Assembly: GCA_030835905.1 (NCBI GenBank)
Contig: JAURQX010000040.1
Coordinates: 299-64,298, forward strand
Reading direction: 5' to 3'
DNA from: Alphaproteobacteria bacterium
GTDB lineage: Bacteria > Pseudomonadota > Alphaproteobacteria > Rickettsiales > UBA1997
DNA length: 64,000 nt
The position numbers and the translations under genes are program-made. This document shows positions 53,863-55,793 of this stretch, one piece after another. The notes under the pieces were generated by a model, which was given only the letters and a program-made list of their open reading frames with translations, did no database searches and was not told the DNA's origin. The number at the start of each line of letters is the position of its first letter. Positions within the stretch are counted from its first letter, which is position 1.

Positions 53863-55793
53863 TTAAAAGCCTCTCTTCTGAGCCGAGCAATTTTTAACAG
53901 GTGAAAAGTTATGGTTTTCTGGGCTAGTTGATGGTTTTGCTGTTCTTTTACTAAAAAAAGATGTATTTGGATTATTGGTTACATCACAGTCAGTATCAGA
54001 AGTTGATTTATTAGATGCATCATCAATTTTTCTGCTACTAAATTGAGTTTCTGGATTGATGGGTGATGTACTATTAGGAGATGTTTTGCCAATTGCTACT
54101 TGGTAAGCTTGATCATCAGATAAATCTTCAATTTCGCTGTCATTTCCTTGTGAATTTGAATCTCGACCATTGCTTAAAAAACTTTGTTCAACATTTTTTC
54201 TAGCATTATGACCTCTTATAACTTTTTGAACTGTAGTTGCAGCAATTTCTTTTACTTTTATATCTTCAACCTTGCCAAGAATAGATATTTCTTGATCATT
54301 AATTAAGATTTTTGATCGAGCACCTTTGTTTGTATCTATAACTGCAAAAAAGCCTTTTGCTTTTAACTCTTCTTGAATCGAGCTTGAGACATCTTTCATT
54401 AAATTAAATAAAACTTCGGCATAACTTTTATTCATTAACCTTAATATAAAGCCAAGTTCAGGAATTTTTTCTCCGATTTTACTAATTATCTTTTTCTTTC
54501 TCTTCTCTTGTTTATTAGCAATATCAATATTAACAATCCTTGAATCATCTGCTGTAGATAGGCTACTGTACAACGAACTATCAGCTAATGATGAGTTGTT
54601 GTGCATTTTTAATGCTTCCGAAGTGTTGAAGCCACCATATTCTTTAATAAAATAAGTCATTAACGACAATAGTTTTTCACCGCTTTGAGTTAACTTGTTT
54701 TGGTCTAACCCTTCTAAAAATTTTTCTTTAAAAACATTGCCTAGCTTAAGCTGGTTGTCGTTTAAATAAGCAATTAACTTGGTTTTTAGTATATTTGGAT
54801 CTGGTTTATGATAATCTTTTAGCTTGTCACCAACTTTATATTCACTATTCAAGTCTTTAAAGGCAAATGACCTTCTAGTTGCTTCTTTGTCTGATATGCC
54901 ATGATCTTTAGCAAATTTTACTTCTTTAAAATCACTTCCTAAATCTTTGGTAACTTCGTATTGAATATTTTTAGCAATCAAGGATTTAACATTCTGCCTA
55001 GGTGTTTGATAATCGCTATCAAGAATTTCTTCTGGTTTTAAACCTTTGTTTTTTGCGCAAATTTCTATTAATTCTGCTCTTAATTTTGCTTCGGCTATGG
55101 TTATGCTTTCAGGAGATTGTTTAATTTGTCTTGATAAATTCTGAGCAGATTGCTTGATCTGGTCTAAAAAATTATCATTATCTAACTCATTATCATCATT
55201 CGTTACTAAAAATTCTTCAATAATTTCAGCACTTTTTTTCTAGAACTTCTATTACTAGTAGCAGCAGGACTTTGATTTATGCTTGGAATTTCTATTTCTT
55301 TAATTGTTTGCAAAAGATTTGTGAAATAGCTTTCGTCTGATTGATTTTCTTTTTCAGCTTCTTCAATAATTAAACCAAGAGCAGATTTTCCTTGATAATC
55401 TCGATCTGCTAGTAAATCTATTAATGGTCTAGATTGAGACTTCTTGTGATCATCAACATATTCTAAATTGGCAAATATTTCAAAAATTTCTGCGACCGCT
55501 TCTTCATTTTGCTCTAAATGGCTTTTTTTATTAGGGTTTTGTTTTTCACCACCAGTCTTCAAAGATTCTTTATTATTGATAATATTTTCTATGGTTAAAA
55601 CCAAAAGATTTTTGTGTTTTTGATTATTGGCTTTTGTATAATGGGTGAATATGTCTGTTATAAATTGCGATGGCTCTCTAGATGAATAAGTCAACATTAT
55701 GTATTGCTCACCATGCTCACCACTTTCAGTATAAATTTTAATGATTTCATTATCTTGAGAGGAGTTATTTCGAGTTTCTAAATTTTTTGGCAT
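53863..55793 (-). pseudogene. paralogue of the 923-aa ORF, split into 195-aa and 372-aa ORFs at an A7 tract (frameshift or recoding)
   Basis: ORF 55206..55793 aligns to the N-terminus of 55910..58681 (KKSQSRPLIDLL, GKSALGLIIE). The frame of ORF 53863..54981 stays open up to the A7 run (55233..55239), and the sequence continues the alignment (IAEAKLRAELIE, KEYGGF). One extra A, or a -1 slip, fuses the two. Confidence 0.7.

Follow-up and report, generated by a model that had tools for sequence, protein, structure and literature searches.

A gene of about 643 codons on the minus strand of contig JAURQX010000040.1 (assembly GCA_030835905.1), from the draft metagenome-assembled genome of an uncultured estuarine Rickettsiales bacterium, is split into two open reading frames (ORFs) at a run of seven adenines (A7). 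The window analysed here is the whole 64,000-nucleotide (nt) stretch of this contig from position 299 to 64,298, and positions below are numbered within it unless another contig is named. The split is probably a real and recent loss of one base from a run of eight adenines (A8), leaving an N-domain product of 195 amino acids (aa) and an untranslated C-terminal part, and the gene is best read as a pseudogene in the making or as a truncated allele encoding the N-domain only. In this mechanism a one-base insertion or deletion (indel) at the DNA level would have split a lineage-specific gene, the simplest such event being a deletion that removed one A from AGA AAA AAA AGT in the ancestor, with loss as the presumed direction of change. 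Ribosomes would then end eight codons past the run, giving a 195-aa product limited to the conserved N-terminal block of the family, and the 456 codons behind the run would remain untranslated because they have neither a start codon nor a ribosome-binding site of their own, apart from traces of full-length protein made by spontaneous slippage, as at any A7 run.

On the coding strand the junction reads ...AGT TCT AGA AAA AAA GTG CTG AAA TTA TTG AAG AAT TTT TAG, with the adenine run corresponding to T7 on the plus strand. The upstream ORF, which contains the most conserved block of the family (KKSQSRPLIDLL...GKSALGLIIE), passes through the run and reaches its stop, a TAG, after eight further sense codons, so that its last eight residues (VLKLLKNF) form an out-of-frame tail. 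The -1 frame is closed on its 5' side by another TAG, which lies inside TC TAG A, and from there remains open for 458 codons, starting with KKSAEIIEEFLVTNDD. The two frames overlap by 34 nt, beginning with the run itself, and either a -1 reading or one extra A joins 187 codons of the first frame to 456 of the second to give a product of 643 aa, placing the run 29% into the gene. No start codon was seen around the upstream stop when the codons were read directly, and ATG, GTG, and TTG are absent from the first 86 codons of the downstream frame; the first of them is a TTG at 54981 (codon 87), 75 codons past the upstream stop. A 458-codon open frame that is start-less for 86 codons has a chance probability, by composition, of P ~1e-16. 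The original prediction, made from the letters of the window alone, had described this run, the two frames, the stop of the first frame, and the TAG that closes the second, and its coordinates are all borne out on the minus strand.

Both pieces are related to an intact 923-aa tandem paralogue that lies directly upstream of the broken gene. The N-terminal piece aligns with residues 70-152 of this paralogue (37% identity, E 8e-13), and the C-terminal piece with residues 221-560 (29%, E 2e-20), in agreement with the earlier proposal that a -1 slip or an A8 run would yield a fusion of roughly 640 aa colinear with the 923-aa protein. A third copy, on contig C56 of the same genome, is an uninterrupted ORF of 307 aa that spans the junction on both sides in one frame, with ...AVGKKLSTIINEI... 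of this copy aligned over ...SSRKK|SAEIIEEF... of the broken gene (GKKLSTIINEI against RKK|SAEIIEEF). The homology to this copy follows the zero frame as far as the Lys-Lys encoded by the A7 run and the -1 frame from there on, the homologous Lys-Lys of the C56 copy being GGC AAA AAA CTA, in frame. As the frame changes directly after Lys-Lys, the break is placed at the A7 run, precisely where the gene had been predicted to split. A family profile search of 1.84 billion representative proteins returned the four pieces of this genome and one distant homologue alone, a 364-aa protein (P0005, E 1e-12) that again spans the junction in one frame and is encoded at 5904..6998 of a 7-kb contig of ENA ERZ909428, from marine metagenome SRR1699480. 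The two-frame layout is therefore seen in 0 of the three homologues, namely the 923-aa and 307-aa paralogues and the 364-aa metagenome protein, and the alignments indicate that both pieces were formerly one gene. On the P0005 contig, the neighbouring genes are metK, trmB, murB, a TrbC-type gene, and the gene for L28.

No member of the split-gene family was found in 40 relatives, including three congeners, and searches of genome and metagenome contigs gave no orthologue. A search of 5.8 billion proteins returned only the 372-aa ORF of the window itself, the public gene call that begins at the TTG mentioned above, and among about 15 billion proteins none is recorded as a 643-aa product. Judged from these searches, the split gene is lineage-specific and belongs to an orphan family.

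The downstream frame carries little trace of age. All 458 of its codons are open, with no stops, further indels, or other signs of decay among them, and the coding-type order of guanine-cytosine (GC) content over the three codon positions (GC1 > GC2 > GC3) is kept, at 0.40/0.32/0.20 compared with 0.40/0.29/0.20 in the N-terminal piece. Single substitutions that create a stop make up 5.6% of those possible in this frame, and were it untranslated, the probability that it was still open would fall to 50% at 0.9% divergence and to 5% at 3.8%. Since the downstream frame is still open and of coding-type composition, the break would be young. The locus also shows features of a split pseudogene, with two frames colinear with an intact homologue, a break at a mononucleotide run, and a downstream frame that lacks a start signal. 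Gene fission, in which the C-terminal piece would have become an independent gene, was considered and rejected, with no start available for 86 codons and the TTG at 54981 cutting into a block conserved in the paralogues. The position of this TTG inside the conserved block indicates that the 372-aa ORF in public records is a truncation by the gene caller; for annotation, the public 195-aa and 372-aa calls are two pieces of one gene, and the start of the latter is an artefact.

The coordinates of these and of adjoining features are collected in Table 1.

Table 1. Features of the split gene and its surroundings (window coordinates).
Feature	Position	Strand	Basis
Downstream stop-to-stop frame, 458 codons plus stop, C-terminal piece of the broken gene	53863..55239	-	ORF reading and paralogue alignments
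IQ-like motif (VQKVIRGHNARKNV) in the C-terminal piece	54193..54243	-	Pfam, 18.7 bits against a threshold of 20.3 (sub-threshold)
TAG ending the upstream ORF, 3' edge of the 34-nt overlap in which both frames are open	55206..55208	-	
Upstream ORF, 195 aa, N-terminal piece of the broken gene	55206..55793	-	ORF reading and paralogue alignments
A7 run (T7 on the plus strand), marks the frame change; A_AAA_AAA in phase with the upstream ORF	55233..55239	-	
TAG inside TC TAG A, closes the -1 frame on its 5' side	55240..55242	-	
Hairpin, 19-nt arms (95% complementary) separated by 2 nt; lies between the 923-aa paralogue and the broken gene	55827..55866	.	
Intact 923-aa tandem paralogue, directly upstream of the broken gene	55910..58681	-	

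The window corresponds to contig C23 of a 1.25-Mb draft genome (57 contigs, 31.5% GC, 88% completeness), whose MnmE finds its closest counterparts in Rickettsiales metagenome-assembled genomes (67%) and shares about 42% identity with that of Candidatus Megaera. Besides the NCBI genome, three further contigs carry the same locus, one from Logan (run SRR7132117), one from ENA MEGAHIT, and one from JGI/IMG. The ENA MEGAHIT and Logan contigs are 100% identical to the window and both carry A7, with the Logan contig (2.4 kb) passing uninterrupted through the site, and the 195-aa and 372-aa products also appear in the JGI/IMG gene calls, the latter differing there only by an L written for the TTG start. 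The reads of SRR7132117 come from a metagenome of San Francisco Bay water and were produced on an Illumina HiSeq 2500 (2x150; PMC10720571). Because the assemblies agree on the A7 run or the split, and the data are Illumina, an assembly artefact or the error of a homopolymer-prone platform is unlikely. These A7 calls come from assembled contigs, which may share reads and drop rare variants.

Whether the run could act as a recoding signal was judged from the heptamer, its surroundings, and its frequency in the genome. The sequence AG A_AAA_AAA G follows the X_XXY_YYZ slippery pattern, in phase and inside the 34-nt overlap, just as the original prediction had stated. The heptamer is, nevertheless, no rarer than chance in this genome. 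Among 794 ORFs that do not overlap and have at least 200 codons (the long ORFs), in-phase A_AAA_AAA occurs 552 times, in 355 ORFs (45%), and such a frequency in long genes means that the heptamer cannot by itself cause efficient shifting. The A7 runs of these ORFs are distributed over the three phases as 422/265/303. An indel in an A run has roughly a one-in-three chance of landing in this phase, and the genome as a whole contains 1,868 A/T runs of exactly seven and 687 longer ones.

Stimulatory elements, sought as a hairpin or pseudoknot at a spacing of 5-9 nt and/or an upstream Shine-Dalgarno-like sequence, are lacking at the site when it is compared with 473 ordinary in-phase heptamers of the same genome, neither element exceeding the median of this background. 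The upstream duplex with the anti-Shine-Dalgarno sequence reaches -0.5 kcal/mol, which 57% of the background heptamers equal or better, and the 60 nt downstream fold with an energy of -4.5 kcal/mol (an AU-rich 8-bp stem starting 1 nt past the run, z -0.45), a stability matched or exceeded at 75% of the background sites. The 103-nt fold around the site is similarly unremarkable (z -0.97). Slippage of RNA polymerase is no better placed, the coding-strand run being only A7 and too short for this to be frequent; the frameshifts known to be rescued by slippage in endosymbionts lie in runs at least about 9 long. For E. coli RNA polymerase, indels are bypassed only at runs of 7 or more T, or at still longer runs of A (PMC6260861), and a transcriptome-wide study of Buchnera found that the rate of insertion rises exponentially with run length and restored the reading frame in no case (PMC5574713).

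A strict whole-genome scan for a long frame followed by a long start-less frame gave two junctions only in 1.25 Mb, the locus described here and one at window position 19652, which does not lie at a homopolymer. This second split gene (19130..20044, minus strand) begins with a 130-aa ORF (19652..20044) bearing a prepilin-type N-terminal methylation motif (N_methyl, E 0.0012), followed by about 180 open codons in another frame without an ATG, and the overlap (TAATGGCACTTTGAGTGTTTTGTAG) holds no long homopolymer. When looser scans are included, 2 of the ~2,550 A/T runs of at least 7 lie at confirmed splits of a single gene, namely the A7 run and a T9 run in pstC (GCC TCG ATT TTT TTT TGA; contig C18, about 9084..9917, plus strand; 2233..3418 of locus L032). 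The downstream frame of pstC is recognised by TIGR02138 with 274.9 bits, and the pstA gene that follows is intact. Congeners carry an intact pstC (79-81% identity, 397-409 aa; 390-409 aa when the three congeners and other relatives are taken together), two of them reading GCA TCA ATA TTT TTT GAA at the place of the T9 run, and as the congener frames are intact the pstC frameshift is derived in this genome. A T9 run is within the range of documented RNA polymerase slippage. An IS1-family transposase on contig C30 (about 26000..26770, plus strand; DDE_Tnp_IS1, 1.8e-11) shows a two-ORF -1 layout over ATT AAA AAA AAC and is, judging from this arrangement, a true programmed A-run site in the same genome.

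An apparent lack of mismatch repair would be a plausible background to these frameshifts. Neither MutS_V nor MutL_C was found in this genome (88% complete), and MutS_V was found in 0 of three congeners (two of them 96% complete) and in 2 of 15 members of the family, compared with 10 of 10 genomes from other families of the order, which suggests a possible loss of mismatch repair in this aquatic Rickettsiales family. A one-base indel at the A7 run would fit such a lineage, in which the rate of homopolymer indels should rise, and the presence of two derived homopolymer frameshifts in a 1.25-Mb genome is consistent with a link to the missing repair system.

Of the explanations that compete with a recent one-base loss, a sequencing or assembly artefact would have the true sequence as A8 and the gene as one intact reading frame of 643 codons. 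Consensus indel errors typically fall in homopolymers, the genome is a draft assembled from a metagenome, and a perfectly open downstream frame is what such an error would leave behind; however, the one sequencing run that was traced comes from a platform not prone to homopolymer errors, the NCBI, ENA MEGAHIT, and Logan sequences are identical with A7 and the fourth assembly has the same split, and a systematic homopolymer error is rejected by the Illumina platform and by the genome-wide scan, in which only 2 of ~2,550 long A/T runs were confirmed to split a single gene. The homopolymer error offered in the original prediction is thus very unlikely. Programmed recoding, also offered there, would have a set fraction of ribosomes slip by -1 on A_AAA_AAA, or RNA polymerase add an A, to make useful isoforms of 195 and 643 aa, as in dnaX, IS1 InsAB', and phage G/GT, which work by such recoding. 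The phase of the heptamer within the overlap, the intact downstream frame, and the like arrangement of the IS1 transposase of this genome all suit this explanation, as does the presence among the 28 transfer RNA (tRNA) genes found in the draft of a single tRNA-Lys, with anticodon UUU (the long ORFs use AAA 24,515 times and AAG 5,212 times). Against these stand the lack of any stimulator better than the background median, the occurrence of the same heptamer in nearly half of the long ORFs, and the absence of the split from all three homologues, and for transcriptional slippage the length of the run. Furthermore, the resemblance to the dnaX site extends to the Lys-Lys heptamer and its phase but not to a stimulator or to the final base, which is A here, and A_AAA_AAA is reported to be much less prone to shifting than A_AAA_AAG in E. 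coli (PMC5009743). We consider recoding at this site highly unlikely, and this part of the original prediction is not supported.

Population polymorphism or stochastic switching, in which the run flips often between A7 and A8 without mismatch repair, cells with full-length and truncated proteins coexist, and the assemblies report the majority A7, is also unlikely, though less so than either of the above. It gains from the apparent absence of MutS and MutL from the genome and of MutS_V from the congeners, from the pstC T9 frameshift as a sign that such indels arise and persist here, from the fully open downstream frame, and from the position of the gene in a cluster of large eukaryote-like proteins with ankyrin repeats and IQ motifs, a kind of gene that is often variable. 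Yet A7 is not an unusual tract in a genome with so many runs of seven or more, only the A7 and the pstC T9 were confirmed at single-gene splits in the genome-wide scan, the tract lies well inside the gene and not near its start, the ENA MEGAHIT and Logan contigs have A7, with the latter running straight through, the split ORFs recur in the fourth assembly, and protein records contain no 643-aa product. More speculatively, in a Rickettsiales lineage that has lost mismatch repair, A/T runs in effector-like genes could serve as stochastic switches or low-level slippage sites, such that both the 195-aa and the 643-aa protein, the latter with its IQ-like motif, are made and the frameshift is kept, an idea that we regard as rather improbable. 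Several observations weigh against a recent, simple loss of one base. The four assemblies could derive from shared or related reads; true programmed sites have the same layout, with a slippery run where a short upstream ORF overlaps a long -1 ORF; a lone tRNA-Lys(UUU) is the situation in which Lys codons are prone to shift in E. coli (PMC5009743); and the downstream 458 codons hold no stop, as would also be expected if the frame were still translated by recoding or if some cells of the population had an intact allele, so that the choice lies between a young break and a downstream frame that is still read. A recent one-base loss remains, on balance, the probable reading.

The nature of the gene family offers few clues to its function. 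Pfam holds no family for the N-terminal piece or for the 923-aa paralogue, and the C-terminal piece contains only the sub-threshold IQ motif listed in Table 1. An AlphaFold2 model of the 923-aa paralogue, built from a 5-row alignment, has a mean predicted local distance difference test score of 49.7 and a predicted template modelling score of 0.30, and is too poor for a fold search. In the adjoining 1,872-aa ORF an IQ motif passes the threshold (25.9 bits) and AAA/P-loop is matched weakly, and the next gene onward encodes a 1,659-aa ankyrin-repeat protein. Positions 41705..58681 of the window thus hold a cluster of large proteins without annotated relatives (1,659 aa, 1,872 aa, the split gene, and 923 aa), which in its domain content looks like a set of eukaryote-like, host-interaction-type proteins of an intracellular bacterium. 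The 19-nt-arm hairpin of Table 1 probably serves the 923-aa gene as a terminator or regulatory hairpin. A second palindrome (53569..53750, 87-nt arms, 77% complementary) flanks the split gene on its other side, in the gap that separates it from the convergent 1,872-aa gene, and a scan for promoters and terminators revealed nothing that exceeds shuffled expectation.

Taken alone, the locus carries little weight, adding a further example to the genes that homopolymer indels have broken in small AT-rich genomes. A family seemingly without MutS and MutL, together with at least two derived homopolymer frameshifts in this genome, could serve as a system for examining how genomes that lack mismatch repair deal with thousands of A/T runs. 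Were the split kept, it would, if true, be a case of chromosomal recoding in an orphan gene of an intracellular-type bacterium, with a eukaryote-like motif.

Comparison with characterised systems is in keeping with this assessment. The site shares with E. coli dnaX (A_AAA_AAG) a Lys-Lys heptamer of the X_XXY_YYZ type and the finding of a single tRNA-Lys(UUU), whereas at dnaX a Shine-Dalgarno-like element lies upstream, a hairpin follows downstream, and the shift gives the shorter product; here no stimulator was found and a shift would give the longer one. The short upstream ORF, the long -1 ORF, and the A run in their overlap recall InsA/InsAB' of IS1, whose arrangement is conserved across the family and whose low rate of shifting is part of its regulation, while in the present family the arrangement is found in one of four homologues only. 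Rescue by slippage in endosymbionts involves longer runs than the A7 considered here, which interrupts an orphan gene without orthologues; cases of such rescue are cited in PMC5009743. In Citrobacter rodentium tssM, likewise a chromosomal gene interrupted at a homopolymer, transcriptional slippage yields two length variants (PMC4256274), a result obtained experimentally, whereas the evidence here is DNA sequence and the run is short. The closest likeness is to the homopolymer frameshift pseudogenes of small genomes, including split genes of the Rickettsia type and the poly(A) cases of Buchnera and Blochmannia, with which this locus shares a one-base indel in an A/T run, a small AT-rich genome of an intracellular-type lineage, pieces colinear with intact homologues, and a downstream piece without a start codon.
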